Source of the DNA: an uncultured Desulfobacter sp. | GTDB lineage: Bacteria; Desulfobacterota; Desulfobacteria; Desulfobacterales; Desulfobacteraceae | Length of the DNA stretch: 64,000 nucleotides | Assembly: GCF_963665355.2 (NCBI RefSeq) | Contig: NZ_OY762228.2 | Coordinates: 1,546,120-1,610,119 of the forward strand | Reading direction: 5' to 3' | Shown: piece after piece, positions 35,538 to 59,590 of the stretch | How the letters are laid out: each line of letters begins with the position of its first letter | Position numbering within the stretch: the first letter of the stretch is position 1 | Notes under the pieces: generated by a model | Databases searched by the model: none | What the model saw: only the letters and a program-made list of their open reading frames with translations | Told to the model about the DNA's origin: nothing | Program-made: the position numbers and the translations under genes

Positions 35538-37388
35538 TCAGATCTCTGTTTCCTTCTTTTTAAGTTTGCCGGCCAGGATATGGCGTTTGGCAGCATTAAG
35601 CTCGACTTTACGGATGCGGATGGATAAAGGCGTTACTTCAACCATTTCATCGTCCCGGATAAAATGGATGGCCTGCTCCAGGGTCATGGGCTTGACCGGC
35701 GAGCAGATGGTGGCCTCGTCTTTTCCGGAAGCACGCATGTTGGTCAGCTTTTTTTCCTTGCAGGCATTGACGTCAATATCCGAATGGCGGTTGTGTTCGC
35801 CAATGACCATGCCTTCATATACCGGGGTGCCCGGCGTGATGAAAAGACGTCCCCTGGGCTCCAGGTTGAACAGGGCATAGGGCACAGCCTTACCCTGGCG
35901 GTCGCACACAAGGGAGCCGGTGTAGCGCACGGGAAATTCCCCGCGATGGGGTTCATACCCGGACAGATAGGAGTTCAGGATACCCGTTCCCCGGGTGTCG
36001 GTCATGAATTCGTCCCGGTATCCGATCAGGGAGCGTGACGGGATGGAGAACTCCAGGCGGACCCGTCCCTTTCCGTTATTGACCAGGTTGGTCATCTTGC
36101 CTTTTCTGACGGAGAGTTTTTCGGTGACCACGCCCATGAAATCTTCATCGCAGTCCACAAACAGATGTTCGATGGGCTCCAGGGTCTGTCCGTTTTCTTC
36201 GCGGTAAATGACCTTGGGCCGTCCCACACACACTTCAAAATTTTCCCGTCGCATGGTTTCAATGAGAATGGCCAGTTGAAGTTCCCCCCGGCCTTTGACC
36301 ACAAAGCTGTCATCATCGGAACTCTCCTCCACCTCAATGGCCACATTGAGCAGAGTCTCTTTGAGCAGACGCTCCCGGATTTTTCTGGACTGAACATTTT
36401 TGCCCTCTTTGCCGGCAAAGGGTGAGGTATTAATGGTAAACCGCATGAACACCGTGGGTTCGTCCACGGATATTCTGGGCAGGGCCAAGGGACTTTCCCG
36501 GGTGCAGATGGTGTCACCAATCTTGACATCCTCAATGCCTGCCAGTACGACAATATCTCCGGTGTCAGCCTGGTCCACCGGCACCAGCGTTATACCTTCA
36601 TATGACTGGAGCTTGGATACCTTAAGCTGTTTCTGGGCATCGTTTTCACCCATACACACCAGGGATGCATTGGAGGCGGCAGATCCGTTGAACACCTTTC
36701 CGATGGCAAGACGCCCCAGGTAATCGGAATAACCAAGGTCCGACACCAGCATCTGGAACGGTGCGTCAGGATCATAGGAGGGGGCGGGCATCTCATCGAT
36801 AATAATATCAAAAAGAACTTTAAGGTTATCCACCTCTTCTTCGAGTCCCCGCTTGACAATTCCGTCCCGGCCAATGGCGTAGAGATAGGTGAAGTCCAGC
36901 TGTTCATCCGTGGCTCCAAGGTCGATGAACAGGTCGTAGACCATGTCCAGAACCTCATCGGGCCGGGCATCCTTACGGTCGATTTTGTTGATGATCACAA
37001 GTACGGGAAGGTCTGCTTCAAAGGTTTTTTTAAGCACAAACCGGGTCTGGGGCAAAGGCCCTTCAGAGGCATCCACCAGCAGAATAGCGGAATCTGCCAT
37101 GGAAAGAGCGCGCTCCACCTCACCGCCGAAATCGGCATGGCCCGGGGTGTCAATAATATTGATCTTTATCCCGTTGCAGGTAACCGAGCAGTTTTTGGCG
37201 GCAATGGTAATACCCCGCTCCCGCTCCAGATCCATGGAGTCCATGAGCCGGTCATCAACTTCCTGGCCCTCCCTGAACATCCCGCTCTGTTTAAACATGG
37301 CATCCACCAGCGTGGTTTTCCCATGGTCAACATGGGCTATGATGGCAACATTTCTCAATCTATCATTTACTGCACTGTTTTTTTTCAT
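35538..37388 (-). CDS. typA: Translational GTPase TypA/BipA
   Basis: AIIAHVDHGKTTL, DTPGHADFGGEV and NKID motifs, full-length 616 aa. Confidence 0.95.
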   Translation of the reverse strand: MKKNSAVNDRLRNVAIIAHVDHGKTTLVDAMFKQSGMFREGQEVDDRLMDSMDLERERGITIAAKNCSVTCNGIKINIIDTPGHADFGGEVERALSMADSAILLVDASEGPLPQTRFVLKKTFEADLPVLVIINKIDRKDARPDEVLDMVYDLFIDLGATDEQLDFTYLYAIGRDGIVKRGLEEEVDNLKVLFDIIIDEMPAPSYDPDAPFQMLVSDLGYSDYLGRLAIGKVFNGSAASNASLVCMGENDAQKQLKVSKLQSYEGITLVPVDQADTGDIVVLAGIEDVKIGDTICTRESPLALPRISVDEPTVFMRFTINTSPFAGKEGKNVQSRKIRERLLKETLLNVAIEVEESSDDDSFVVKGRGELQLAILIETMRRENFEVCVGRPKVIYREENGQTLEPIEHLFVDCDEDFMGVVTEKLSVRKGKMTNLVNNGKGRVRLEFSIPSRSLIGYRDEFMTDTRGTGILNSYLSGYEPHRGEFPVRYTGSLVCDRQGKAVPYALFNLEPRGRLFITPGTPVYEGMVIGEHNRHSDIDVNACKEKKLTNMRASGKDEATICSPVKPMTLEQAIHFIRDDEMVEVTPLSIRIRKVELNAAKRHILAGKLKKKETEI

Positions 37389-37397
37389 ATTCTCCTG

Positions 37398-37871
37398 CTA
37401 TTTAGATACTCTGGTGGTGCCGTCGGGGGCTGTCAGCACCCGCACCCGGTCCCCGGGATACATAGGTACATCGGCCTCTTGGACAACCACAATGGTTCGT
37501 CCGCTGTCAAGTCTAATCACTATTTCCAAACCGTCTTTGGTTGTGGCGTCATGTTCAATGGCTGCGCCAATGGCCGCACCGGCCAATGCTCCGACAATGG
37601 TCGCCACATCACGGCCCGAACCATGGCCCACGGTACTGCCGAACACTCCACCGGTCACACCACCAATGGCCACCCCGGCCGCCGGAGGATTTGAGGCCTG
37701 GATAATGACGGATTTCACAGATTCCACAGTGCCCGTATCCACTGTCTGGGCCCGCATGGTCTGCTCATAGGTATATATATTGGAGCTGGATGATGCACAC
37801 CCTGCCATGGTCAGCATTGCCACGGCCAAAATGCAAACAAAAAACCTCATTCCTGATCCCGTTATATTCAT
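37398..37871 (-). CDS. Glycine-zipper outer-membrane lipoprotein (SlyB/Pcp-like)
   Basis: Lipobox LTMAGC and glycine zippers (AGVAIGGVTGGVFGSTVG, GALAGAAIGAAI). Start chosen at ATG 37871, downstream of GGGGGA. Confidence 0.75.
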   Translation of the reverse strand: MNITGSGMRFFVCILAVAMLTMAGCASSSSNIYTYEQTMRAQTVDTGTVESVKSVIIQASNPPAAGVAIGGVTGGVFGSTVGHGSGRDVATIVGALAGAAIGAAIEHDATTKDGLEIVIRLDSGRTIVVVQEADVPMYPGDRVRVLTAPDGTTRVSK

Positions 37872-38010
37872 GTTCCTGTCCCCCCGGCTCCTGATCGTAC
37901 ACATAAAACAGGCGCTATTATACCGCTTGCAACAGGCAAAAGGAAGTAATCATTATGTAAGATAAAGTCAACGCTATAAAAAAACGTAATATTATTAAAC
38001 CTGTCCTGAC

Positions 38011-38038
38011 TTGAACTTCACGACAGTTAATGTATAAC
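38011..38038 (+). promoter_or_regulatory. Sigma-70-like promoter of the TelA-containing operon
   Basis: TTGAAC-N16-TATAAC, about 80 nt upstream of ATG 38118. Confidence 0.4.
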
Positions 38039-38117
38039 AATAGTGCCGTCCAGGCCCGAAGGGCGTTTAAATTGCCATCAAACAAGGAGTTTTTTTAAAC
38101 TTGGAAGGAAATACTTC

Positions 38118-38639
38118 ATGACCGTTTTGATTATAGCAGCCGTATTTATCCTTGCGCTTTTTGCATTCAACCTGATTGTCAAACACCTCAAAATACCAAT
38201 AACATCATCAGCGCCCCCAAACCAGTCCACCCCGTCCCCGGAAAAAAAAGATGCAGGTGCTGATTTCAAACACATTCTTGACACCCTGATTAAGCTGAAT
38301 CTTATGATCCGGACCGACCGTGATTTTTCCGTGGATTTGATTTTAAAAACAGAATCCATTATCGACGACCTTAAAGCCCTTATTCCGGACATGATCACCC
38401 GGTACCCCGGGGAAACCCTGACCTATGAACTCAAAAAGATCGGAGCCACCCACCTTTTTAAAATTGTTAAAGAGTATCTTGATCTTTCCCCCGACAACAG
38501 ACAGGCCCAGAAGCAGGCCTTTGAAAAAACCATTGAAAGCCTTCATGACGTATGCACAAGGTCACGGCAGATCGTGGATAATAACGAAATCGCAGAATTT
38601 AAAACCATGGCCCAGTTTCTTGGGAGCAAATTTTCATAA
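38118..38639 (+). CDS. Single-pass membrane protein with helical cytoplasmic domain (XpaC-like by position)
   Basis: GGAAGGA RBS. N-terminal TM helix MTVLIIAAVFILALFAFNLIV, a Pro/Ser linker and a helical C-terminal part. Directly precedes the TelA homolog. Confidence 0.5.
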   Translation: MTVLIIAAVFILALFAFNLIVKHLKIPITSSAPPNQSTPSPEKKDAGADFKHILDTLIKLNLMIRTDRDFSVDLILKTESIIDDLKALIPDMITRYPGETLTYELKKIGATHLFKIVKEYLDLSPDNRQAQKQAFEKTIESLHDVCTRSRQIVDNNEIAEFKTMAQFLGSKFS

Positions 38640-38651
38640 AGGAGAAAACCC

Positions 38652-39884
38652 ATGTCCAGTTTGGCTCAGGAACTTGCCAATGTGGCCGGTCAGGCCAAAG
38701 CGCCTGTATTAGCAGAAGTTACCCAGGCTTCGGGGCAGGGGGCGCTTACCCCTGTCCAGGCCCCCAACCAGCTGGTGCCGGTCCAGCCCGGGCACCTTGC
38801 AGTTGAAGATATCAAGGCCCTTGAAAATGAGGCTGATGCCTTTGTTGAAAAAGTTAAGAAAGACCCGTTGGGCTGGCAGTTGGGCAACTTTGTATTTTCC
38901 CTGGGCCGGGACATTATGGAAAAAACCCAGGCCCAGGTCTCCCTGTACGACCGCAAAATGGGATCGGTGCTGAAAAACGTGGCTTCCCAGGAGAGCTCTC
39001 CTGTGGCAAGAAATATCCTGGCCATTAAGATTGAGCTGGACAAGGTCAACCCCACCATGGTGGCCAAAACGGAAATGCCCCTGCCTAAGAAGGTGATGGG
39101 GCTCTTCACCCGCACCGTAAACCGTCTGCCCAAAGGAGATGAGATCCTGCGCATCATTGCCGAGCGCAGGGAAACCGTGAACTCCACCATCGACGGCATC
39201 CGGGACCACCTGCGCAACGAGGCCGACCAGGTGGCCTTTGATGCGGCGGAACTCTCCCAGATCTGTGATGCCTTAAAAGAGATCCAGCCGGCATTGCAGG
39301 AACAGATCTACCTGGGCCAGCTAATCTGGGAGAAACTCACCGCCCACCTTGACACGGTGGATGATCCCCGGATCAACGAGGCGTTGACCACCCTGACCTC
39401 GGATTTGGCCATGGCTGTGGTGGACTTGCAGACCATTGACAACTCCAATCTTCAGACCCGGTTCGGCGGTGAAATGATGGTCAGAAACTCACATCTGGTC
39501 CAGCGCCTGGTCCAGCGCACGGACATGATTCTGTCCACGGCCGTAAAAAATGCCCTGGCGGTAAGGGTGGCGGCCGAACAGCAGATGGATACCCTCAAAC
39601 ACCTGGACATGGTCCAGCAGGCAGCCGCCGAGACCATGGCGGATACGGCAAAGGTCATTGGTGATGCCGCAGTCAAAGGTGCAAAGATGAGCCAGAGCAT
39701 GACCGTTAACATCCAGGCCCTGGAAGAGGCTTGCAACACTTATGAACAGGCATTTGATGCCTACACGGCCATCTCCAAGGAGACCATCAGCATTGCGTCC
39801 CAAAGCTCCAACGCCCTGGGCGTTATGAATGAGCGTTTCAGGGCGAGGACCGATGCATTAACATCAAGACGCCAGGAGAATTGA
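38652..39884 (+). CDS. telA: TelA/YaaN/KlaA-family toxic-anion-resistance protein
   Basis: 410-aa all-helical protein with the family's length and segments (…LYDRKMGSVLKN…, …IAERRETVNSTIDGIRDHLRNEADQVAFDAAEL…, …LQTRFGGEMMVRNSHLVQRLV…). The call comes from my recognition of the family, not from a search. Confidence 0.6.
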   Translation: MSSLAQELANVAGQAKAPVLAEVTQASGQGALTPVQAPNQLVPVQPGHLAVEDIKALENEADAFVEKVKKDPLGWQLGNFVFSLGRDIMEKTQAQVSLYDRKMGSVLKNVASQESSPVARNILAIKIELDKVNPTMVAKTEMPLPKKVMGLFTRTVNRLPKGDEILRIIAERRETVNSTIDGIRDHLRNEADQVAFDAAELSQICDALKEIQPALQEQIYLGQLIWEKLTAHLDTVDDPRINEALTTLTSDLAMAVVDLQTIDNSNLQTRFGGEMMVRNSHLVQRLVQRTDMILSTAVKNALAVRVAAEQQMDTLKHLDMVQQAAAETMADTAKVIGDAAVKGAKMSQSMTVNIQALEEACNTYEQAFDAYTAISKETISIASQSSNALGVMNERFRARTDALTSRRQEN

Positions 39885-39886
39885 TT

Positions 39887-40534
39887 ATGCTTTCCGTTCC
39901 CGAACAAAAATCCTTTGATCAGCGGTTTTCCCTGATTCGCGCTCTGACTCCGGACAAAGTGTTGTCAAAGGAGGAACAATCCCGGCTGACCATTATGGAT
40001 GCAGGTGTTGGCGGTTGTTTTACCTGTTTTGACAATACCTATATTATCCAGGAGATCAACACCTACCAGGAGGCCAGTGATAACTATTCAAAGCTGGAAG
40101 ACTTCTTTGTTACCGAACTGACCTGTCTGTGCCTGGAGACCGGTGTCCTAGGCCATTTTGAATGGGAATTTGATGATGAGCTGGAGGTGTGTATCACCCT
40201 GGACCAGACCAAATTCAAACGGCTGACCGATGATGAGGGCCAGCCCATTGATGAGGATGATCTGGATCAGATTGCGGATGATGAGGACAGCATCGTCTAC
40301 GCCGGGGAGACCTATGATTATGATGATGACTGGGCTGCCGTGTATCGGCGCAACGGCAGGGAAGAAAGGGTTTATATGTATGAATTTGTCAATAATCTGT
40401 CAGCTCTTTTCATCACCATTGAGGAGTGGCAGGACGGGGACAAAGAGGAGTACCGGATCTATATCTCCAGGCCTGTGGACCCGGCCGAGCTGACGCTGAT
40501 CACCAGAGGAGAGGGAAAACATGAAACGCCGTAA
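39887..40534 (+). CDS. Acidic DUF4178-like protein
   Basis: The beta-rich N-terminal part (…GGCFTCFDNTYIIQEINTYQE…GHFEWEFDDELEVCITL…) resembles the DUF4178 pattern. Followed by an Asp/Glu-rich linker and a second beta-rich part. ATG lies 7 nt after AGGAGA. Confidence 0.45.
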   Translation: MLSVPEQKSFDQRFSLIRALTPDKVLSKEEQSRLTIMDAGVGGCFTCFDNTYIIQEINTYQEASDNYSKLEDFFVTELTCLCLETGVLGHFEWEFDDELEVCITLDQTKFKRLTDDEGQPIDEDDLDQIADDEDSIVYAGETYDYDDDWAAVYRRNGREERVYMYEFVNNLSALFITIEEWQDGDKEEYRIYISRPVDPAELTLITRGEGKHETP

Positions 40535-42155
40535 CATCTGCTTGAAAATAGAACAGATATGCGGGGGGATTGTTCTTGTTTTACTGGCTCTGGTCCTTTT
40601 GTCCGGCTGCGGTCCGGGACTTTCCGACGCAACCAGAACCAAAGCTGAAGCCGTAAAAAAGGATTTGGATTCCACCCAGGCGTTCATCGAATCCCAAAAG
40701 AAAAAATATCAGGGTATGTCAACATCCCCGGACTTTTCTGCCATGGCTGGGTATGCATCCAGGGAAAAGTGGGATATGGCGTTTCCCACTGCCGCTGCGA
40801 CCCTGGCCCGGGCCCGGGAGGTGTATGATAAGGGATTAAAAGTCACCATGGAACAGGACAAACCCGAAGGGGAAACCCAGGCCCGGGCCCAGATCAGGCA
40901 GGTTAATTCGGTGGTCCAGGAAGCCAGAAACCAGGCAAAAATGCCCTTTGAGCGTATCAGCAGGATCACGGCGGCCATGACACAAACCCAGGCCATGGAA
41001 ACATCTGCCCTGGCCTGTTCAGACACCATCCTGTCAAAGGTACAAAGCCTGGAACAGGGGCCCGTTGCCAGGGCAAAGGAAAGTTTCCCCGATTCAGAAA
41101 CCCAAATTACGGCCCGGTTTGCCCCTTTTTCCAAAATGGCGGACGACACAACGGCCAATACAGATATTGTTAAAGCCCAGTATAAGGCCCATACCCAGGG
41201 CAATGCCGACTATGCCGCCTTTGTCACGGCAGCCGATGCCATTGAGCAGGCAAAGGTGACGCTTTCCAGGACCGGGCCGGAATTTGAAAAGGATCTGGAA
41301 CAGCTGTACCAGAGTTACACCAAAATCCTTGAAGACATGAGGATTGACTATTTTGTCAACATATATCGAGAGTCCTGGGATGAAAGGACAGATTCTTACA
41401 ACCCCAGAATTGTCTCTTATACCCGACAGGTATCCCCCGCTGTTTTCCAGGCGTTAAACGACTCGGACGCTGAGTCCATTGCAGAGATTTTACCGGGTTT
41501 TAACGGGATGAGTATGCGGATTACCCGGGGTCTGGAATCAGCGTTCAAGGCATTGAACCTTGATCCGGTGGAAAACTGGCCTGATCCCCGGCACAATGCC
41601 GCCACCTTTTACCTTAACAGTACCCAGTTAAAATATTTTCATAAATATCTTAAAGAAGAGAACGGGGAAACCAAAAACACCGGATGGGAAGCGGTCAATG
41701 CCTCTTTTTATGAACAGAATCTGGATAATTTGGGTATGGCGATTCTGTCCAAGCCCTATGGCGAGTTTGAGCCAGATCCCCAGGCTGCCCCGCCCGGCAT
41801 GGCCTATGTGGGCAATCCCAAATACGGGGAGTGGAAAAAGGATGGAAACGGCAACAGTTTCTGGTCCTGGTATGGCCGGTATGCCTTTTTTTCCAATCTG
41901 TTCTTTTTTCCCCCCCATTACTACTCCTATGGATCATGGAACAGGTGGAACTCGGACTACAGATACAGAAAACCCTACTACGGCCAAACCCAGGCCGGAT
42001 ACACCTATGGTACCCGGGGTACCAGTATGAACCAGTCACCGCGCTATCAGAACAGCACCTTTTCAAAAACCGGCGGACTTAAAACCGCTTCTGCTTCGGT
42101 AAGGGGCGGCGCATCTGGCCTCAGGGGCGGCGGACCCAAATCCAAAGGCAAATAA
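40521..42155 (+). CDS. Large lipoprotein with aromatic/Gly/Arg-rich C-terminal tail, unknown function
   Basis: Lipobox LLSGC, about 250 aa of helical Q/A/K-rich sequence, and the tail …FWSWYGRYAFFSNLFFFPPHYYSYGSWNRWNSDYRYRKPYYGQ…VRGGASGLRGGGPKSKGK. Confidence 0.6.
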   Translation: MKRRNICLKIEQICGGIVLVLLALVLLSGCGPGLSDATRTKAEAVKKDLDSTQAFIESQKKKYQGMSTSPDFSAMAGYASREKWDMAFPTAAATLARAREVYDKGLKVTMEQDKPEGETQARAQIRQVNSVVQEARNQAKMPFERISRITAAMTQTQAMETSALACSDTILSKVQSLEQGPVARAKESFPDSETQITARFAPFSKMADDTTANTDIVKAQYKAHTQGNADYAAFVTAADAIEQAKVTLSRTGPEFEKDLEQLYQSYTKILEDMRIDYFVNIYRESWDERTDSYNPRIVSYTRQVSPAVFQALNDSDAESIAEILPGFNGMSMRITRGLESAFKALNLDPVENWPDPRHNAATFYLNSTQLKYFHKYLKEENGETKNTGWEAVNASFYEQNLDNLGMAILSKPYGEFEPDPQAAPPGMAYVGNPKYGEWKKDGNGNSFWSWYGRYAFFSNLFFFPPHYYSYGSWNRWNSDYRYRKPYYGQTQAGYTYGTRGTSMNQSPRYQNSTFSKTGGLKTASASVRGGASGLRGGGPKSKGK

Positions 42156-42167
42156 GGAGAACAACCT

Positions 42168-43058
42168 ATGAATTATACGGCAACCCTAATCAGCATGGGG
42201 CATGGGGTGTGCTATGCCCTGGTGAGCGTTTTATTTATTTTTCTGGCCAAACTTCTGGATGACCGGCGGACCAAAGACTTTGATGATGACCGTCACATTG
42301 ACGACGGCAACATGGCCGTGGGGCTAAGACGGGCAGGGCTTTATCTGGGCATTGCCATCGGCATGGTCGGCGCGCTGTCAGGGGATTCTTCAGGTTTTTC
42401 CGATGATATGATTTATCTTGTGGTGGACGGCATCGTCATCACATGCTGCCTTTTTATTTCCCGGTCCATCAACGATCATATCATGATGGGCCACCTGCAC
42501 AACGACCGGGAGTGTGTCAAAGTATTTGTTCTTGAAGACGGGCGCACCACCACGGGCAATACCGCCCTTGGCATGGTGGAGGCAGGCATGTACATTGCCA
42601 CCGGATTTATTCTCAACGGCAGCATGTCCGGCGGCGGGGGCAGTTTTTACCAGTCCCTGGGATCAGCTCTGCTCTTTTTTATTCTGGGGCAGATTGTCCT
42701 GCTCGCCTTGGGGCTGATCTATGAGCTTATTACACCCTTTAATGTCAGAGAGGAAATCAAGAAGAACAATCCGGCCGCCGGTATTGGCCTGGCCGGTATT
42801 CTGGTGGCCCTGGGAATTATTCTTAAAAGCAGTCTTTCAGGACCCTTTACCGGGTGGGTTACCGACATTACCGGATTTTTTATATATACGGTTTTCGGTA
42901 TGGTCCTGCTGCTTGTTTTCAGCGCACTTGCGGACCGGTTTCTTCTGCCCACCACAAATATCGCGACCGAAATCAAGGAGGACAGAAATGTTGCGGCCCT
43001 GGTGGTGGTCCAGGCGACCATTATTGCTGTGGCACTGATCATTGCCCATGCCATCTGA
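42168..43058 (+). CDS. Membrane protein with two DUF350-like repeats
   Basis: Two copies of the DUF350 signature context (…DDGNMAVGLRRAGLYLGIAIG… and …KKNNPAAGIGLAGILVALGII…), each within about 4 TM helices. AAGGAGA RBS. Confidence 0.6.
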   Translation: MNYTATLISMGHGVCYALVSVLFIFLAKLLDDRRTKDFDDDRHIDDGNMAVGLRRAGLYLGIAIGMVGALSGDSSGFSDDMIYLVVDGIVITCCLFISRSINDHIMMGHLHNDRECVKVFVLEDGRTTTGNTALGMVEAGMYIATGFILNGSMSGGGGSFYQSLGSALLFFILGQIVLLALGLIYELITPFNVREEIKKNNPAAGIGLAGILVALGIILKSSLSGPFTGWVTDITGFFIYTVFGMVLLLVFSALADRFLLPTTNIATEIKEDRNVAALVVVQATIIAVALIIAHAI

Positions 43059-44751
43059 TCTTCCGGGGAGCGCCCGGTCACCCGGGCGCTGCCGACTCAA
43101 CCCGGCCTCGGTCCTGCTGTGTCTTTGCATGTTTGCATCCGGGGCCTGCGGCATCATCCTTGAATATATCCAGGCAAGCCTTGCCTCCATGATCCTGGGC
43201 AACGCCTTTGAACAGTGGGCCATGGTCATCGGCCTTATGATGTTCTGGATGGGATTCGGCAGCCTGATCCAGGCCCGGATCTCCAGGAAACGCCTGGTCT
43301 ATGCTTTTATCGGCATTGAAATAGCACTGGCACTTGCAGGGGGGTATTCACCCACACTGACCTATCTCTCCTACGGATACACCAGCCACTACAGCCTGGT
43401 GCTCTACTTTTTTGTTTCCGTCATCGGCATTCTCATCGGCCTTGAAATTCCCGTGATCATACGAATCAACAACGATTTTTCAACGGAACTGTCCACCAAC
43501 CTGGGCAATATTCTGTCCTCGGACTATATCGGGTCCCTGGCAGGGGCGCTGATCTATGTATTTTTACTGCTGCGCTTTTTCCCCATTACCGAAGCCGCGT
43601 TTTTAACCGCCGGTATGAATTTTTTGCTTGCTCTGATTACATTTATCTATTTCACCCGCAAACAGATTATCCGGTGCAATATCCCGTTGCTTGTGATCAT
43701 GGCGGCCACCTGTGGGGCTTTGATTTTCGGGCTTATGAATAATCGCAAATGGCAGATCACCAACGAGCAGGCCCTGTATGACGACCCCATCGTTTATTCT
43801 AAAACCAGCCAGTACCAGCATATCGTTATCACCCATTTCGAGCCCCTGGACGAAATCCGGCTTTTTTTAAACGGCAACCTTCAATTGTGCAGTACGGACG
43901 AGGAGCGATATCATGAGCCCCTGGTTCATCCGGCCCTGGCCCTGGCACAGGCCCGCAGCCGGGTGCTGATCCTGGGCGGCGGTGACGGCTGTGCGTTGCG
44001 GGAGGTTTTAAAATACCCGGATGTTGACCGGATTACCCTGGTGGACCTGGACCCGGCCATAACAACCCTTGCGGCCACCCATCCGCTTCTGTCCCGGCTC
44101 AACGCCCACGCCTTTGACAATGCCCGGGTGACCACCCTGACGGGTTCAGGTATTTCACCGGGGGATTTTCGTCAGATATATCAGTCATTGTCTGACCAAA
44201 AGAGAAAACCGGCCGAGGTCCGCCATGTGGCCGAGGTCCGGGTCATGAACCTGGATGCCGACAAGTTCCTTGAACAGGTGACAGACGTCTGGGATGTCAT
44301 TATTGTGGACATGCCCGATCCCTCCACACCGGAACTGACCAAACTCTATTCAAAGGAATTTTATCTTAAAGTCAGACACAGGCTGGCAGAAAACGGCATT
44401 GCATCAATCCAGTCCACCTCCCCCTACCTTGCAAAGGAGAGCTATCTTTGCATAGGCAGGACATTGACTTCTGCCGGATTTTTTATCTTGCCGTACCATG
44501 AAAATGTGCCTTCCTTCGGGGACTGGGGCTGGTTTCTATGTACACGTAAATCCTGGGGCAATGAACTTTGGCAGCAGCGCATTGCAGGGCTTGAATTTAC
44601 CGTTCCCACCAGGTTTTTAACCCCTGAAGTGTTCAGGGGTGAGCTTGTATTCGGCAAAGGTATGGATCAAAGCCTTCACACAGAAATCAACACCCTTCTT
44701 TTTCCAGTTCTGCTCTCCTATTACAATCATGAATCCTGGCTTCTAGAATAG
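43042..44751 (+). CDS. Polytopic membrane domain fused to a spermidine/spermine-synthase-like aminopropyltransferase domain
   Basis: About 7-8 N-terminal TM helices. The C-terminal domain carries YQHIVI, YHEPLVHPAL, VLILGGGDGCALREVLKY, ITLVDLDP and IIVDMPDP motifs of the spermine-synthase fold. TTG 43042 or ATG 43048 start, overlapping the upstream gene. Confidence 0.7.
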   Translation: MPMPSDLPGSARSPGRCRLNPASVLLCLCMFASGACGIILEYIQASLASMILGNAFEQWAMVIGLMMFWMGFGSLIQARISRKRLVYAFIGIEIALALAGGYSPTLTYLSYGYTSHYSLVLYFFVSVIGILIGLEIPVIIRINNDFSTELSTNLGNILSSDYIGSLAGALIYVFLLLRFFPITEAAFLTAGMNFLLALITFIYFTRKQIIRCNIPLLVIMAATCGALIFGLMNNRKWQITNEQALYDDPIVYSKTSQYQHIVITHFEPLDEIRLFLNGNLQLCSTDEERYHEPLVHPALALAQARSRVLILGGGDGCALREVLKYPDVDRITLVDLDPAITTLAATHPLLSRLNAHAFDNARVTTLTGSGISPGDFRQIYQSLSDQKRKPAEVRHVAEVRVMNLDADKFLEQVTDVWDVIIVDMPDPSTPELTKLYSKEFYLKVRHRLAENGIASIQSTSPYLAKESYLCIGRTLTSAGFFILPYHENVPSFGDWGWFLCTRKSWGNELWQQRIAGLEFTVPTRFLTPEVFRGELVFGKGMDQSLHTEINTLLFPVLLSYYNHESWLLE

Positions 44752-44781: not shown

Positions 44782-45459
44782 TTATTTCTCCGTCAAGTCG
44801 TTGGTGTTTTCTTTGAGTTTTGATTCAATCATAAAAGGTCTTTTCACCAAAACCCGCTGCATCTTGTCAATTTTTTTTTCAAGGAAGGACACACGTTTTT
44901 CAAGGTGTCTGGCCGCCCTGAAAAAACGAAGAAAACTGAAATGTTTTTCAAACGGAGTTTCAACTCCTGGCAAGGAGATGTCGTTGACATACCAGTGTGA
45001 CGCATTGGTTACGCACAGGACAATTTTTTTTATGTTTTTGTCCTCCACCGGCATTCTGAGGAAATAGGGCCCGGTTCTTTCAAACAGCATATGTGTTGTC
45101 ACTTTTTGATAATTGAACGTCCGGTCCCGATAGCAGATGAAAACGTAAAGATCTCCCCATGCATAGTCCATAGGAGCGTTCGTGGCCCATAGGGTTAAGT
45201 CTCCGTCTGCTCGTGATCCGGACGGAAGTTGTTGCACCACGGCATCGTTTTCTTTAAGCACAAGATTATAATCGGAAATAAAAACCCAGTTTTCGTCCGT
45301 TATGCCACCTTTCCGGGTATAAACGCCGTGCCATCGGTCGAAGCCGGGTTCTGCAGCTTCAAGACATGCCCATGTATCTCCCAGCTCTGTGGCAGAGCAC
45401 CATTCCCAGGGGGATAATTCAGTGGTTTCAAATAAACCGTTTTCGATTAAATCGGCCAT
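44782..45459 (-). CDS. Hypothetical protein
   Basis: 225-aa ORF with a GGAGGAAAAACC RBS region. Trp/Asp-rich beta-type N-terminal domain and a basic helical tail. No recognisable family. Confidence 0.5.
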   Translation of the reverse strand: MADLIENGLFETTELSPWEWCSATELGDTWACLEAAEPGFDRWHGVYTRKGGITDENWVFISDYNLVLKENDAVVQQLPSGSRADGDLTLWATNAPMDYAWGDLYVFICYRDRTFNYQKVTTHMLFERTGPYFLRMPVEDKNIKKIVLCVTNASHWYVNDISLPGVETPFEKHFSFLRFFRAARHLEKRVSFLEKKIDKMQRVLVKRPFMIESKLKENTNDLTEK

Positions 45460-45819: not shown

Positions 45820-47289
45820 CTAATTTTGCGGTGCCTGCGTTGGTGTAACCAAGACATCGATGCGTCGGTTGATGGCCCGGCCCTCAGGTGTTGTATTCGG
45901 GGCCAGTGGGCGATCGGGTCCAAATCCCTTGGCCTGAATATAATTTTCCGGAAGCGTCTTGTTCGCCACAAGGTAGGCTTGAACCGCCTCGGCTCGTTTT
46001 TGTGACAACTCCTGGTTTGTCTGGGCAGAACCGGTGCTGTCAGTATGCCCCTCAATTAAGACGTTGGGTTGAGAAAAGACCTGGATGGTCTTTTGAACTT
46101 TGCCAAGCAACGTATAATTTTCCGGGGTAAGGATTGCCTGCCCAACGGGGAACTTGATACCCCGTAACCGAATGATCAAATGATCGCCCTGCTTGTATAC
46201 TTCCGCTTCATCGGGATTAAAAAAACCCTGAACAGTATTAAATTGTTCATTGAACTCTTTTTCAGCTGACAGTTTGCGTTTCACAGCCTCTTGTTCACGG
46301 GAATAGCCTTCTACACCCGCCAGATTTTGTTCTAACGAAGCGATTTGAGTCCGATAGCTGCTGTTTTCATTTTCAAGGGACTGCTTTGTCTGTTTGAGGG
46401 TCTGAACAGCGGCGGTCAACGTACTGAGCTGTGTCTCAAGCCCTTTGTCCCTAATATCACCGGTATTGAGAGTGTCGCCGAGTTGACCGAGTGAAGCTTC
46501 CATGTACAATGCAGATGCTTCGGGAGTCATGGACTGAAATTTTTTACTGCTTTCGCTGATTGCCATCAGTCGACGAGCCATGAATTCGGCATTCACATTT
46601 TTCTGGCTGATTTCTTCGGCTGCATAGGGGTTTCTTTCCGCATAGGCTTCCGCCTGTTTTAAGGCCTGTTCGGCAGCACTATAAGACATCGGTGCGATTT
46701 TATTGAGTTTTGCTTTTCTGGCATCATCCATCATCTTTCGGGTTTTGCCCAGGGCGTTATTTTTAATGGCCATGATCTCCAGCTTACGAAACCCGGATTG
46801 TACCTCTGCGGCATGGTTCTGGGCGTAACTCAAATTATCGTTTTCTATGGCCTGGGTGAGTTTTAGGTATTGGTTTTCCACATCCACATACGGCTTGCCC
46901 AACTTTTCGGCCCCTACCTTCAGCGCCTTGTCCCGATCTCCGTTAACTGCGCCAAGAATCGTTTGGGAGACTTTGGCGATCTCTTCAGCCTTTCTTAAGT
47001 TGGCGCTGCCATCAGCAACATAATCATTGATGGCAGATAGTTTGGCACCTTTTTCCAGAGCCTGTTTCGCTTTTGCAAAGGAAGCTTGCGCTTTTTGGAA
47101 TAATCCAGGTGAAAGGACATCGATATTTCTGGTCCGTGCATCAGATAGGCTTGCTTCTAATTGATGCACGGATTGATTCACGGATGCATCGGGATTGATT
47201 GCTGAAACACTGGATGTTTGTCCTGTGGTACATGAGCTGACAATACTTAAAACAAAAAACAGCAGACATAAACGAATTATTCCTTTCAT
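45820..47289 (-). CDS. OmpA-family lipoprotein with long coiled-coil N-terminal region
   Basis: GGGAGGG RBS and ATG at 47289. Lipobox LSIVSSC. C-terminal OmpA_C motif (GHTDSTGSAQTNQELSQKRAEAV…NRRIDV). The ORF track's upstream extension to 47481 is unlikely. Confidence 0.8.
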   Translation of the reverse strand: MKGIIRLCLLFFVLSIVSSCTTGQTSSVSAINPDASVNQSVHQLEASLSDARTRNIDVLSPGLFQKAQASFAKAKQALEKGAKLSAINDYVADGSANLRKAEEIAKVSQTILGAVNGDRDKALKVGAEKLGKPYVDVENQYLKLTQAIENDNLSYAQNHAAEVQSGFRKLEIMAIKNNALGKTRKMMDDARKAKLNKIAPMSYSAAEQALKQAEAYAERNPYAAEEISQKNVNAEFMARRLMAISESSKKFQSMTPEASALYMEASLGQLGDTLNTGDIRDKGLETQLSTLTAAVQTLKQTKQSLENENSSYRTQIASLEQNLAGVEGYSREQEAVKRKLSAEKEFNEQFNTVQGFFNPDEAEVYKQGDHLIIRLRGIKFPVGQAILTPENYTLLGKVQKTIQVFSQPNVLIEGHTDSTGSAQTNQELSQKRAEAVQAYLVANKTLPENYIQAKGFGPDRPLAPNTTPEGRAINRRIDVLVTPTQAPQN

Positions 47290-47525
47290 GTAACCCTCCC
47301 ATAATGTTTTTGAACATAATTTGAAAATATAGATAAATTGGCTAAAAAGCAAAGAATGGAACTTGCTTTTTCCGCAAAAGAGTATAGTTAGCGGTCCCCT
47401 GTAAGTCAAGAATAAACCCGTATTGGACAAGATGCAGGCCATACGCGCCTGAAAGAAGTAGGCGCACATAATATAACGCACTGGGATGGCTATGCTTTTT
47501 TCATTATAACTCGATTTGGTTTGTC

Positions 47526-55845: not shown

Positions 55846-56867
55846 ATTTTAGATCGACTCCCCACCTTGGCAATGGCCTCGTAAACGGCCTGGAGTTTGG
55901 ATTCAGGATCCGTGGCAATGGTGGCACCGGCACTTTCAATGCGGCACCCCCCCCTGGGAATCATGGCGTCCGAATTCACCGTGATATGGACCAGGGAACG
56001 CACCGCCTCAAAAAAGCTCTCCTTAACCATCTCCACATATTCATAATCCTCTGCAGCCACGCTCAGGGTAATTTCTTCAGGTGCGGCAAGCTGGGATAAA
56101 GCGTCCAGGATTGTGTTCTTGACCACGGCATCATCTGAGTCAATCTTGGCCATCACCACTTTCCCGGCGATCTTACAGACGAGATCAACCAGCTGGGTCT
56201 CATATCGGGCCAGCATGTTGTCCAGCATTTTGTCTGCGGTTTCAAGGGCTTGCCGAAAAGGATTCAGGACGGCCTCCATTTCCCGGACAATCTCCTGTTT
56301 TCCGGCATCTCGCCCCTCTTCCTGGCCCTTTTCAAAACCTTGGGCCTCACCTTTGGCAAACCCGTCGGCCTCCCCCTGTTTGAATCCCTCTTCCCGGCCT
56401 TTTTTCAACCCCTCTTCATGTCCCCTGGTATGACCATCGGCCTGCCCTTTCTCAAGTCCCTGGACCATACCCTTTTCATAGCCTTTGGCAAATCCCAGTT
56501 CTTCCGGGGTAGGTTGTTCTTCCGGCTCATCCTCGTTCTGGGCTTCCTGCGCAGGATCGGACGATTCCTGTTTTGCATCGGGTTTATCCGCAACCACATC
56601 CGCCCCCTGGATCAAAGGCTCAAATAACTCCTCTTTGATTCGTTTGGTCACTTTAATCAGGGCCTCAAATTCACCTTCTTCCTTTTGAAACTCCAAAGGA
56701 TCAATCAAAAGCTTGAACCGGTCAAAATCAGGCTGGGTATCGGGCCCCTTAAGTGAGACCTCTTTATCAAAAGCGTCAAGGGCTCCCACGTCGATGGCCT
56801 GGAATTCATCCTCCTGTGGTAGTGGCCGGCCCTTTTTATGCTTTTTTTGATCAGACAAGGACATCAT
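55842..56867 (-). CDS. fliH: Flagellar assembly protein FliH
   Basis: The Gly-repeat region (GYEKGMVQGLEKGQADGHTRGHEEGLKKGREEGFKQGEADGFAKGEAQGFEKG) and C-terminal FliH domain overlap the fliI start. Confidence 0.85.
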   Translation of the reverse strand: MMSLSDQKKHKKGRPLPQEDEFQAIDVGALDAFDKEVSLKGPDTQPDFDRFKLLIDPLEFQKEEGEFEALIKVTKRIKEELFEPLIQGADVVADKPDAKQESSDPAQEAQNEDEPEEQPTPEELGFAKGYEKGMVQGLEKGQADGHTRGHEEGLKKGREEGFKQGEADGFAKGEAQGFEKGQEEGRDAGKQEIVREMEAVLNPFRQALETADKMLDNMLARYETQLVDLVCKIAGKVVMAKIDSDDAVVKNTILDALSQLAAPEEITLSVAAEDYEYVEMVKESFFEAVRSLVHITVNSDAMIPRGGCRIESAGATIATDPESKLQAVYEAIAKVGSRSKI

Positions 56868-57864
56868 CTTTTCCTTTACCCAGGGTTATGGTGCCGTCGG
56901 CCTCAAGCTCTTTGGCTGCTCTGACCACGGCTTGCTGGGCTTCTTCAACCTCTGCCAGGCGGACAGGCCCCATGGCATCCAGGTCGTCTTTAAGCATTTC
57001 ACCTGCCCTCTGGGACAGGTTAGCAAAAATTTTGGCCTTCATATCTTCAGTGGCGGTTTTCAATGCGTAGGTGAGCTGCTGGCCCTCAACCTTCTTGAGG
57101 ATCTCTCTCATGGCATTATCATCCACGCTGGTCAGATCCTCGAATACAAACATGAGTTTGCGGATTTCATTGGCCATTTCCGCATCATCTTCCTCAACAT
57201 ATTCCATAACAGCATCTTCGGTGGATTTGTCCACACCATTGATGATCTCCACCAGGACTTCGATACCACCGGCCTTGCCTCCGGGGCCCACCGCGCCACT
57301 GAGTTCGTATTTCAGCGCCCTGTCCACATCCCGGACAACATCTTCGGAAATCTGTCCTAGCCGGGCGATTCTCATGGCAATATCCCCTTTGAGTTCATCG
57401 GCCAGGTTCATCATAATTTCCGAAGCAATTTCGCTGGGCATATGCGCCAGGATCATGGCTATGGTCTGGGGATGTTCTCCTTCTATATATGTCGACAAGG
57501 TGCCTGTATTCACATTCCGGCTCCATATAAACGGTTTGGCCTGTTTCTTTTTTTCCAGATCGTCCAGAATCGCTTTGGCTTCACTGCCTTTCAACGTTTT
57601 GTTGACCACGTTTTTAATAAAGGAGTCTCCCTCAACAACTATTTTGGATTCACCCTCATATCTAACATTGAAATCAGCGCATACAATTTTAAGCAGATCT
57701 GCTGTAATCTGATCGACCTTGGACATTTCAAAGGCAATTTCCGCAATCTCCTGTTCTTTCATTTTTGAGAACACCTGGGTTGTATATTCTTCTCCCATGT
57801 AAATAAGAAATATAGCGGCCTTTTGATAACCATTCAGATTTTCCGGATCAATTGCTTTTGGCAT
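56851..57864 (-). CDS. fliG: Flagellar motor switch protein FliG
   Basis: …GYQKAAIFLIYMGEE… and a full-length 337 aa with the C-terminal torque-helix region. Confidence 0.95.
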   Translation of the reverse strand: MPKAIDPENLNGYQKAAIFLIYMGEEYTTQVFSKMKEQEIAEIAFEMSKVDQITADLLKIVCADFNVRYEGESKIVVEGDSFIKNVVNKTLKGSEAKAILDDLEKKKQAKPFIWSRNVNTGTLSTYIEGEHPQTIAMILAHMPSEIASEIMMNLADELKGDIAMRIARLGQISEDVVRDVDRALKYELSGAVGPGGKAGGIEVLVEIINGVDKSTEDAVMEYVEEDDAEMANEIRKLMFVFEDLTSVDDNAMREILKKVEGQQLTYALKTATEDMKAKIFANLSQRAGEMLKDDLDAMGPVRLAEVEEAQQAVVRAAKELEADGTITLGKGKDDVLV

Positions 57865-57868
57865 AAAA

Positions 57869-59590
57869 TTATTCCTCCCCTTGATCTTCGTCTTCTACTT
57901 CAGCGAGCCATCCCTTGATGATATTTATGGATTTCACCAGGTCTTTTTGTGCATAATACCGGGCCTTTTCCTGCTCCGTCATATTGGCCAGGTATGCGTT
58001 GCGCTCGGCTCTGTTCATTTTTGAAATGAACTCTTCCTTCTGCTCATCGGTCATCAGCTCAAAGAATTCGCGCTGCTGATCGGCATTCATCTCAATAAAG
58101 GTAGGTTCCTTTGCCTCGGTCTCAAGCAGGGCAACCTCTTCCGGTGAAGGCAGGGCTTCCTGTTCCACGGTCACCTTGATGTCGCGAACGGTTTTAATGA
58201 TCGGCCGGATGATGAACAGGAACAATACAAACACCAGCAGTAAATTGGCAATGAGACGCCCGTATTCCTTCTGGACCATGCGCCAGCCCGTAAGTTTATC
58301 CTGTGTTCCCTGCATATCACCGATGGAGACAAAGGGAAAGCACTCCATGGAAACCTGGTCGTTGCGTTCCTCATTATATCCCATGGCCTTGGTTACAATG
58401 CTTTGAAACTGCTGCATCTCTTGGGTGGACCTGGGCATATAGACCCGTTTCATCTCCCCATTGTCGTCTTTTTGAAACTCATATTTGCCGTCAATCACAG
58501 CCGCCACTGAAAGCCTTGTGAGCTCAGCCATGGGTTTCTGGGTCTCCCTGACCCGCCGGCTGATTTCGTAATTGACCGTATCATCACTTTTATTGACCTT
58601 TTCCCGATTTTTATCGCCGGTCTGATTTTCATCAGTGATGGGGTTGACAGATGACGGGATGCCGATCTGTTCATCAAGTTGTACAACTTTTTCAGCTCTG
58701 TTTTTCCGGCTGCGTATGAATTCCCCGCCCCGCTCAAAGGGATCATAAATTTCTTCATTCATGCTGTTTTTGGAAAAATCCATTTCCGAATTAACCCGGA
58801 CAATGGCTTTATCCGTTCCCACGATGCGCTCAAGCATGGTCTGAATTCTGCGCGTCAGATTCTCTTCAAACCGAACCTTATACTGATACTGGGCATCTGC
58901 AAGGCTCTCTGCGTCAATCCGGGCCTGTTCTTCTTCGGATTTTCCCTCAAAAAGAATTCGGCCGGCAGTATCCACGATGGTGACAAGCTTGGGGGTCAGA
59001 TCCTGGACGGAAGAGGCCACCAGATGTGCAATGGCGGCCACTTCTTCTTTCTTGAGATCTGCGACCAGTTCCAGCAAAATGGATGCCGAAGGCTGTTTGG
59101 TTTCCTCTACGAAAACAGATTCCTTGGGCAACACAATCATGACCTTGGCATCCTTGACAGCCTCAAATGCGGCAATGGTACGTGCCAGCTCGCCCTGGAG
59201 CGCCCGTTTCTTATTGATTTTCTGAACAAATTCGGTGGTCCCGAATTCGGTTTTATCAAAAATTTCGTACCCCACCCCGGAGCCTTTGGGAATACCTTCC
59301 TTGGCCATGGTCAACCGAACATCATACACCATGGCCTCCGGTACAAGAATGGTGGTTCCGTCACCGGTCAGGCGATAGGGCGTCTTGGAAGATTTTAACA
59401 TTTCAACCACAGCGGCGGCGTCTTCCTGGCTCAAACTGGAATATGCGGCTTTATATGTTGCTCTGTTGGCCCATACAAACATGGTGATAAACCCTGCCAC
59501 CACAACCAGAACCAGTCCGCCCAGGAGGGCTTTCCGGACCATGCTCATCTCTTTGACCATGGTAATTATTTTTTCAATTACGGGATTCAT
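57869..59590 (-). CDS. fliF: Flagellar M-ring protein FliF
   Basis: 573 aa with two TM helices and the conserved periplasmic ring domains. Confidence 0.95.
   Translation of the reverse strand: MNPVIEKIITMVKEMSMVRKALLGGLVLVVVAGFITMFVWANRATYKAAYSSLSQEDAAAVVEMLKSSKTPYRLTGDGTTILVPEAMVYDVRLTMAKEGIPKGSGVGYEIFDKTEFGTTEFVQKINKKRALQGELARTIAAFEAVKDAKVMIVLPKESVFVEETKQPSASILLELVADLKKEEVAAIAHLVASSVQDLTPKLVTIVDTAGRILFEGKSEEEQARIDAESLADAQYQYKVRFEENLTRRIQTMLERIVGTDKAIVRVNSEMDFSKNSMNEEIYDPFERGGEFIRSRKNRAEKVVQLDEQIGIPSSVNPITDENQTGDKNREKVNKSDDTVNYEISRRVRETQKPMAELTRLSVAAVIDGKYEFQKDDNGEMKRVYMPRSTQEMQQFQSIVTKAMGYNEERNDQVSMECFPFVSIGDMQGTQDKLTGWRMVQKEYGRLIANLLLVFVLFLFIIRPIIKTVRDIKVTVEQEALPSPEEVALLETEAKEPTFIEMNADQQREFFELMTDEQKEEFISKMNRAERNAYLANMTEQEKARYYAQKDLVKSINIIKGWLAEVEDEDQGEE

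Follow-up and report, generated by a model that had tools for sequence, protein, structure and literature searches.

A TelA-fronted 'membrane aminopropyltransferase' operon is located in the chromosome of an uncultured Desulfobacter sp., within a stretch of 64,000 nucleotides (contig NZ_OY762228.2, positions 1,546,120 to 1,610,119) that is referred to here as the window. Its six closely packed, co-directional open reading frames (ORFs), designated g1 to g6, occupy positions 38118 to 44751 on the forward strand and are a single conserved unit of translationally coupled genes. Four of the six genes represent a core that has already been catalogued by comparative genomics, so that the system as a whole cannot count as undescribed. 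The new part is the front end, in which a membrane-anchored four-helix protein and TelA fill the slot that is held by CesT/Tir and PspA in previously described operons. We read the operon as an envelope-stress or membrane-maintenance system, an assignment in which we place somewhat more belief than doubt. The six genes are:

38118-38639, forward strand: g1, membrane-anchored protein of 173 amino acids (aa)
38652-39884, forward strand: g2, TelA family protein (PF05816), 410 aa
39887-40534, forward strand: g3, acidic DUF4178 protein, 215 aa
40521-42155, forward strand: g4, lipoprotein, 544 aa
42168-43058, forward strand: g5, polytopic membrane protein with two DUF350 repeats, 296 aa
43042-44751, forward strand: g6, domain of seven transmembrane (TM) helices fused to a polyamine aminopropyltransferase domain, 569 aa

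Organisation, distribution and sister operons

All six co-directional genes of the original prediction, which was made from the letters of the window, were recovered as ORFs on the forward strand. A gap of 12 nucleotides (nt) separates g1 from g2 and likewise g4 from g5, and g3 overlaps g4 by 14 nt. The two remaining junctions depend on the start codon: g2 and g3 are either 2 nt apart (ATG at 39887) or overlap by 4 nt (TTG at 39881), and g5 and g6 share 17 nt (TTG at 43042) or 11 nt (ATG at 43048), of which the ATG may be the start codon of g6. AGGAG-like ribosome-binding sites are found ahead of g1 to g5. Because the junctions are tight and provided with ribosome-binding sites, and because the gene order is collinear across loci and lineages, the block is regarded as one operon, as originally proposed.

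The distribution of the operon was followed in a genome scan with the lipoprotein as anchor and one genome per species. DUF4178 was dropped as an anchor, since its members are only 22-27% identical. A first lipoprotein alignment was too diverse for a search pattern; the second yielded 80 loci, mainly from Desulfobacterales, and a profile search of a word-indexed database was likewise confined to this order. All six genes are collinear and on the same strand in 62 of the 80 loci, and the remaining 18, mostly at contig ends, are devoid of one or more of them; all 62 untruncated loci thus keep the order. The same gene order is found in two Acidobacteriota genomes. The lipoprotein family as a whole comprises 773 clusters at 50% identity (E-value up to 0.001), with most members being about 530 aa long. 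The context of ten members from different sub-clusters was inspected, eight of which are accompanied by a TelA protein according to Pfam. In an Arcobacter locus, a TelA-sized protein without a Pfam match was matched to g2 by tblastn, and L085 is without TelA. The order in those with TelA is a g1-like protein of 180-200 aa, TelA, DUF4178, often DUF2617, the lipoprotein, the tandem DUF350 protein and the aminopropyltransferase with seven TM helices. The DUF2617 gene lies between the DUF4178 and lipoprotein genes in the distant TelA-type loci (L079-L090, L115, L117 and L128) and was lost in the clade of the window (Desulfobacter/Desulfobacula). One of these loci, L079 (JAYEPB010000049.1), is a contig labelled as a Nanoarchaeota metagenome-assembled genome that carries the bacterial operon of six or seven genes and is probably mis-binned. 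In an independent scan of metagenomes, the DUF350 protein served as anchor and loci were classified with hidden Markov models (HMMs) built from the genome loci; this added 20 loci with the TelA-type layout. Synteny in other genomes therefore extends over Desulfobacterales, Acidobacteriota, Arcobacter and the metagenome loci.

Three further metagenome loci (L094, L095 and L097) were of a PspA type, as confirmed with Pfam. They encode DUF2170 or CesT_Tir_1, PspA_IM30, DUF4178, a tandem DUF350 protein, a protein of about 200 aa with two TM helices and a TM aminopropyltransferase, followed by S-adenosylmethionine (AdoMet) decarboxylase in L095 and L097; L095 also carries a potassium channel gene. 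In the TelA-type and the PspA-type operons alike, a variable pair is placed directly upstream of DUF4178. No homology is detectable between the TelA and PspA families (hhalign probability 3.6%), and none of the six products of the window matches PspA_IM30, DUF2170 or CesT in Pfam. Since both families use the same slot before DUF4178, yet homology between them is undetectable, the exchange puts a non-homologous protein in an equivalent position, and TelA and PspA each come with their own small partner. The earlier suggestion that TelA replaces PspA is thereby supported by all three loci, in which DUF2170/CesT_Tir and PspA_IM30 stand where TelA would be expected; these loci are much closer evidence than the comparison with E. 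coli. In the loci sampled, which are a biased sample, the TelA form was far commoner than the PspA form.

Operons of six to seven genes with a spermine synthase of seven TM helices, a DUF350 protein of eight TM helices, a lipoprotein and DUF4178 were reported from Shewanella and Mycobacterium tuberculosis by Ravi et al. (2024, mSystems). Their 'second major group' is a CesT/Tir-PspA operon, represented by the neighbourhood of SO_3765/SO_3766 in Shewanella oneidensis. The supplement of that paper gives, for Shewanella, a LipoSIG protein with Ctha_1186 and a low-complexity region, YjfL-TM, SIG+TM+Spermine_synth, CesT_Tir-DUF2170, PspA, DUF4178 and RHH, and for M. tuberculosis (Rv2597-2601) TM+DUF4178, DUF2617, DUF4247, YjfL-TM and TM+Spermine_synth. 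In the literature searched, this is the sole paper naming DUF350 together with DUF4178. TelA is absent from its text and supplement and, the Ter/TelA survey of Anantharaman et al. (2012) aside, no paper in the literature searched links TelA to DUF4178, DUF350, DUF2617 or an aminopropyltransferase. Functional work on Rv2597-2601 was not found in this literature either. With four of the six genes forming a core described by Ravi et al., the original claims of an 'undescribed system' built from 'different parts' were too strong.

Properties of the six gene products

The family assignments made from the sequence (TelA, DUF4178, tandem DUF350 and Spermine_synth) were all recovered in Pfam and NCBIfam searches. 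The TelA protein g2 is soluble and helical and matches PF05816 with 72.5 bits (cut-off 30), residues 104-398 covering profile positions 32-328 of 332. It is the best-conserved protein of the block, with a median identity of 81% vs 43% for g4 in 70 genome loci. A sequence search of solved structures gave no match for g2 or g3, and a tblastn search of plasmids with TelA, aimed at xpaC or klaA neighbours, found nothing.

g1, which precedes TelA immediately in every TelA-type locus examined, has no match among Pfam and NCBIfam families. It had been described as a single-pass protein with a helical tail, and hydropathy indeed gives a single TM helix (residues 3-21). In an AlphaFold model based on the family alignment (mean predicted local distance difference test score, pLDDT, of 74), a Pro-rich, disordered linker leads from this helix to a four-helix bundle, which is predicted to be cytoplasmic. 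In Pfam scans for the XpaC family (PF10112, Halogen_Hydrol), none of 26 close relatives of g1 matched, and one of seven distant orthologues gave a weak match below the threshold (E-value 0.05).

g3 has an isoelectric point of 4.1 and no TM segment. It matches PF13785 over the entire profile length with 47.3 bits (cut-off 25) and is thus a true DUF4178 member, not just a DUF4178-like protein. It directly follows TelA here, as its counterpart follows PspA in the sister operons. The membrane protein g5 contains two DUF350 stretches (E-value 1.3e-52 in a Pfam profile search) and about seven to eight TM segments by hydropathy, in line with the '8-TM YjfL family'; it is homologous to YjfL of Escherichia coli (BLAST, 9e-7).

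The lipoprotein g4 has a signal peptide with the lipobox LSGC (Cys30) and a Gly/Tyr/Ser-rich tail, and no match was obtained in Pfam or NCBIfam. Its AlphaFold model comprises a long helical bundle (residues 36-263, pLDDT > 90), a beta-rich domain (266-392) and 130 C-terminal residues of low confidence. The aromatic/Gly/Arg-rich module at the C-terminus (about 377-544), noticed in the original prediction, is strongly conserved, and the majority of the columns that are invariant in the family fall within it, among them KPYG, PPGMAYVGNP-YGEW and the terminal RGGGP--KGK. In L104/L107 (7314-7991), a lipoprotein of 225 aa consists of this C-terminal module alone (HMM positions 377-533, E-value 1e-16). 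Because it can stand alone, the tail is an autonomous conserved module despite the low AlphaFold confidence.

The membrane domain of g6 (about residues 22-232) is followed by the aminopropyltransferase domain (about 245-560). Besides Spermine_synth (E-value 2e-30), g6 matches the NCBIfam model PRK03612, 'polyamine aminopropyltransferase', with 585 bits (cut-off 472) as a full-length hit (residues 18-564). The C-terminal half aligns with thermospermine synthase (6bq2, E-value 3e-28) and with 7xif; archaeal and bacterial aminopropyltransferases are among the matches, with thermospermine and spermidine synthases as the best relatives of solved structure. An insertion of approximately 25 residues (about 363-391) in the catalytic domain splits the match to the solved enzymes. 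All motifs in common with the solved spermidine and thermospermine synthases, donor-binding as well as catalytic, are retained in g6. The fetched loci provided 92 distinct relatives, in which the motifs Y-Q, D-E-x-x-Y-H-E, G-G-G-D-G, D335-x-D337, D405-A, D423-x-P-D426-P and P-S-F-G-D-W-G-W are invariant or nearly so, an indication that the enzyme is active and under purifying selection. The number of Lys plus Arg in the inter-TM loops of the same relatives alternates sharply (2.66, 0.05, 2.05, 0.03, 2.20, 0.00 and 3.35). Owing to this alternation, an N-in topology with a periplasmic catalytic domain is predicted for g6, the sole basis being hydropathy and the positive-inside rule. Such a placement fits the presence of periplasmic partners, which are the lipoprotein, the protein with two TM helices in the PspA-type loci and DUF4247 in M. 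tuberculosis. By compartment, g1, TelA and DUF4178 are assigned to the cytoplasmic face, g5 and the seven TM helices of g6 to the membrane and g4 to the periplasmic side.

Proposed function and competing explanations

A link to stress is suggested by the position of TelA and g1 in the DUF2170/CesT_Tir plus PspA_IM30 slot and by the membership of TelA/XpaC in the sigma-W regulon. It is further indicated by TelA being the most conserved gene of the block and by a divergent gene for a SlyB-like lipoprotein that is a conserved neighbour. A link to polyamines is drawn because AdoMet decarboxylase, amine oxidase and a polyamine-type binding protein recur in related loci. AdoMet decarboxylase adjoins the module in L001, L089 and L092 in addition to L095 and L097, and an amine oxidase gene is inserted in L088. 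In Desulfobacula toluolica Tol2 (L001, 1409-7170), a cluster encoding AdoMet decarboxylase, Acetyltransf_6, an ATP-grasp protein, Orn/Arg decarboxylase and a radical SAM protein lies directly upstream of the operon. A minimal module without TelA, PspA, DUF4178 and the large lipoprotein is located on a 1.8-Mb plasmid of Ensifer sp. PDNC004 (L092, 6057-13507), in a stretch without annotation in the plasmid table; it comprises DUF808, AdoMet decarboxylase, a tandem DUF350 protein, a protein of 220 aa with two TM helices, a TM aminopropyltransferase and a solute-binding protein of the polyamine type. The window itself has none of these additional polyamine genes.

According to the envelope-stress reading, the operon would be expressed under envelope stress and TelA would be held at the inner membrane by g1, forming a submembrane scaffold, as a parallel to the XpaC-TelA pair of Firmicutes and the CesT/Tir-PspA pair of the sister operons. 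The adaptor between this scaffold and the membrane module may be DUF4178. At the membrane, decarboxylated S-adenosylmethionine would be the donor from which g6 transfers aminopropyl groups to a diamine, a polyamine or another amine acceptor, while the membrane domain of g6, the DUF350 protein or both might handle substrate or product across the membrane. The aromatic/Gly/Arg-rich module of g4 could act on, or sense, the periplasmic side. As a net effect, a locally made polycation would stabilise or repair the envelope. The analysis shows the gene content, the conserved order, the conserved active site and the exchange with PspA in position, and every step of this mechanism is inferred from there. 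For the PspA version, Ravi et al. proposed control of membrane stability; in their view, such systems couple PspA-based membrane dynamics either to the concentration of polyamines or to the aminopropylation of some other substrate. The polyamine-coupled envelope-stress reading, also put forward in the original prediction, is the same proposal.

Several observations weigh against this reading. The positional equivalence of TelA and PspA does not show that they share a mechanism, and a paper of 2024 states that there are 'no experimental data' for the operon of PspA and membrane spermidine synthase. If the catalytic domain of g6 is periplasmic, as predicted, it is difficult to see how an aminopropyl donor in the cytoplasm would reach it. 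The window contains no gene for AdoMet decarboxylase or diamine synthesis. g1 has no significant match to XpaC, and in the structure search envisaged for the proteins of 173 and 544 aa, neither the model of g1 nor that of g4 found a PDB match with an E-value < 0.001, only generic helical bundles. A further-reaching version, which we consider possible but unlikely, takes the periplasmic placement at face value. TelA and g1 would then be a non-homologous stand-in for PspA/ESCRT-III and CesT in a trans-envelope machine, in which a periplasmic aminopropyltransferase modifies a non-canonical acceptor and the DUF350 protein or the membrane domain of g6 delivers the donor. An envelope lipid, the lipoprotein g4 or a periplasmic polyamine would be candidates for the acceptor.

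The polyamine genes around related loci could also speak for housekeeping polyamine synthesis and export, with the synthase and the DUF350 protein making and exporting spermidine or a longer polyamine and the other products being accessory or regulatory, without a role in stress. The conserved active site of g6, the minimal Ensifer module beside a polyamine-type binding protein and the neighbouring genes for AdoMet decarboxylase, ornithine decarboxylase and amine oxidase in some loci are in line with this explanation. However, in most loci the module is strictly tied to a TelA or a PspA pair, the most conserved gene of the block is telA, and polyamine precursor genes are absent from most loci, the window included; we therefore consider it rather improbable. 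The bona fide TelA membership of g2, together with the modest tellurite phenotypes of TelA homologues in the literature, might point to a determinant of tellurite or toxic-anion resistance. This is very unlikely, given that the reported TelA phenotypes concern chiefly cell-envelope antibiotics, that TelA is partnered in this operon by polyamine and membrane proteins and that TerB, TerC, TerD, KlaA, TelB and TehAB are not matched by any of the six products; TerB, TerC and TerD are not found among the flanking genes examined either.

For Ter systems, there is a proposal that TelA builds submembrane structures by which phages or xenobiotics are kept from entering, and g6 has a weak PADLOC match to mad2, so that anti-phage or abortive-infection defence was also considered. 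The mad2 match reflects the shared methyltransferase fold only, one additional match is at chance level, and PADLOC listed no other component of a defence system. Moreover, the locus occupies a stable chromosomal neighbourhood beside typA across the order, not a variable island, and its high conservation and seemingly vertical inheritance leave the chances of a defence function slim. Almost no credence is given to chance adjacency of independently expressed genes. The weak promoter match, in a region where promoter-like sites are not enriched, and the lack of an evident terminator after g6 would agree with it, but all junctions are overlaps or gaps of 2-12 nt and the order is conserved across phyla. 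All four of these alternatives are less well supported than the envelope-stress reading.

TelA is widespread and affects susceptibility to tellurite, nisin and daptomycin; its slot in the operon suggests a PspA-like job at the membrane, which is a testable hypothesis. The core of membrane aminopropyltransferase, tandem DUF350 protein and lipoprotein is widespread as well. The TelA form, apparently the common one, offers an experimental route both to the function of TelA and to the role of the membrane aminopropyltransferase. Polyamine biology would extend to direct modification of the envelope, should the enzyme work at the membrane or on its outside. Periplasmic aminopropylation, if true, would be a new chemical reinforcement of the envelope and would provide the first mechanistic handle on TelA.

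Surroundings of the operon and comparison with known systems

The following features flank the operon in the window:

38011-38038, forward strand: promoter-like element, -35 TTGAAC (38011-38016), spacer of 16 nt, -10 TATAAC (38033-38038), about 80 nt upstream of g1
37398-37904, reverse strand: lipoprotein of 168 aa with a glycine-zipper 2TM domain (SlyB-like, PF05433), divergent from the operon
35538-37388, reverse strand: typA/bipA, next after the SlyB-like gene
44782-45459, reverse strand: convergent ORF of 225 aa, directly after g6
45820-47481, reverse strand: OmpA-family protein with a long coiled-coil region, downstream and convergent

The sigma-70-like promoter proposed earlier is present as a modest match to the consensus and lies inside the sole block upstream of g1 that is conserved among Desulfobacter species; it is missing from the output of a consensus promoter scan, and the region has no excess of promoter-like sites. 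No RNA element or riboswitch was found upstream, as Rfam gave no match in the region at E-values up to 1. The SlyB-like gene and typA/bipA are kept as upstream neighbours in 26-31 related Desulfobacterales loci. The convergent gene expected after the last member of the operon is the ORF of 225 aa, which has no Pfam match and no counterpart adjoining the operon in related loci. The gene for the OmpA-family coiled-coil protein is not a conserved neighbour either. The GTG listed as its start probably lies too far upstream, since an internal lipoprotein-like start (MKGIIRLCLLFFVLSIVSSC) is present. Elsewhere in the window, at positions 56001-58000, both the GC skew (-0.18) and the AT skew (-0.20) are strongly negative compared to the remaining sequence.

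In many related loci, the TM aminopropyltransferase gene has a potassium channel gene (Ion_trans_2 plus TrkA_N/RCK) downstream of it, at a distance of up to about 4 kb, and in about half of these the channel gene comes directly after it. The channel gene also comes after it in the PspA-type locus L095. It was located as follows:

L001, 16086-17153: potassium channel gene
L095, 11334-12416: potassium channel gene
about 20 other loci (e.g. L023, L036 and L051): potassium channel gene

Neither a potassium channel gene nor DUF2617 is encoded in the window.

The E. coli operon yjfIJKLMC, whose original description agrees with the RefSeq annotation, had been named as the operon whose logic is mirrored here. 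It resembles the operon of Desulfobacter in combining a helical stress protein and a small partner with a soluble DUF protein, DUF350, a lipoprotein and a polyamine enzyme. The sole homologous pair is g5/YjfL, and even here a single DUF350 in E. coli corresponds to a tandem one in g5. Remote homology between TelA and YjfJ, DUF4178 and YjfK (DUF2491), or g4 and YjfM (DUF1190) was rejected by sequence and profile comparison. In place of an aminopropyltransferase such as g6, E. coli has an ATP-grasp peptide-spermidine ligase. The operons of Ravi et al. are closer.

The pairing of XpaC and TelA in Firmicutes, cited in the original prediction for B. subtilis, is documented in the literature: TelA is paired with the membrane partner XpaC under control of sigma-W, and both proteins affect daptomycin binding and susceptibility, phospholipid microdomains and nisin sensitivity. 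As in the Desulfobacter operon, a gene for a small membrane protein lies directly upstream of telA (yaaN), there with regulation by, and phenotypes related to, envelope stress. In contrast to the operon described here, no polyamine or DUF350 genes are linked to xpaC-telA.

M. tuberculosis Rv2597-Rv2601 agrees with the operon of the window in the order of DUF4178, DUF350 and TM-Spermine_synth, has a secreted or lipoprotein partner, and shares DUF2617 with the distant TelA-type loci, a gene lost in the clade of the window. It differs by the absence of a TelA or PspA pair and by its lipoprotein, which is DUF4247, whereas g4 has no match to this family. The second group of Ravi et al. has DUF4178, the tandem DUF350 protein with eight TM helices and the signal/TM plus Spermine_synth protein in common with the operon of the window. 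Compared by layout, the Shewanella lipoprotein (LipoSIG, domain and low-complexity tail) is built like g4; the gene order in Shewanella is a different one. In the PspA-type loci L094, L095 and L097, a protein of about 200 aa with two TM helices takes the place of g4. The front pair sets both apart from the operon described here: CesT/Tir (DUF2170) and PspA stand where Desulfobacter has g1 and TelA.

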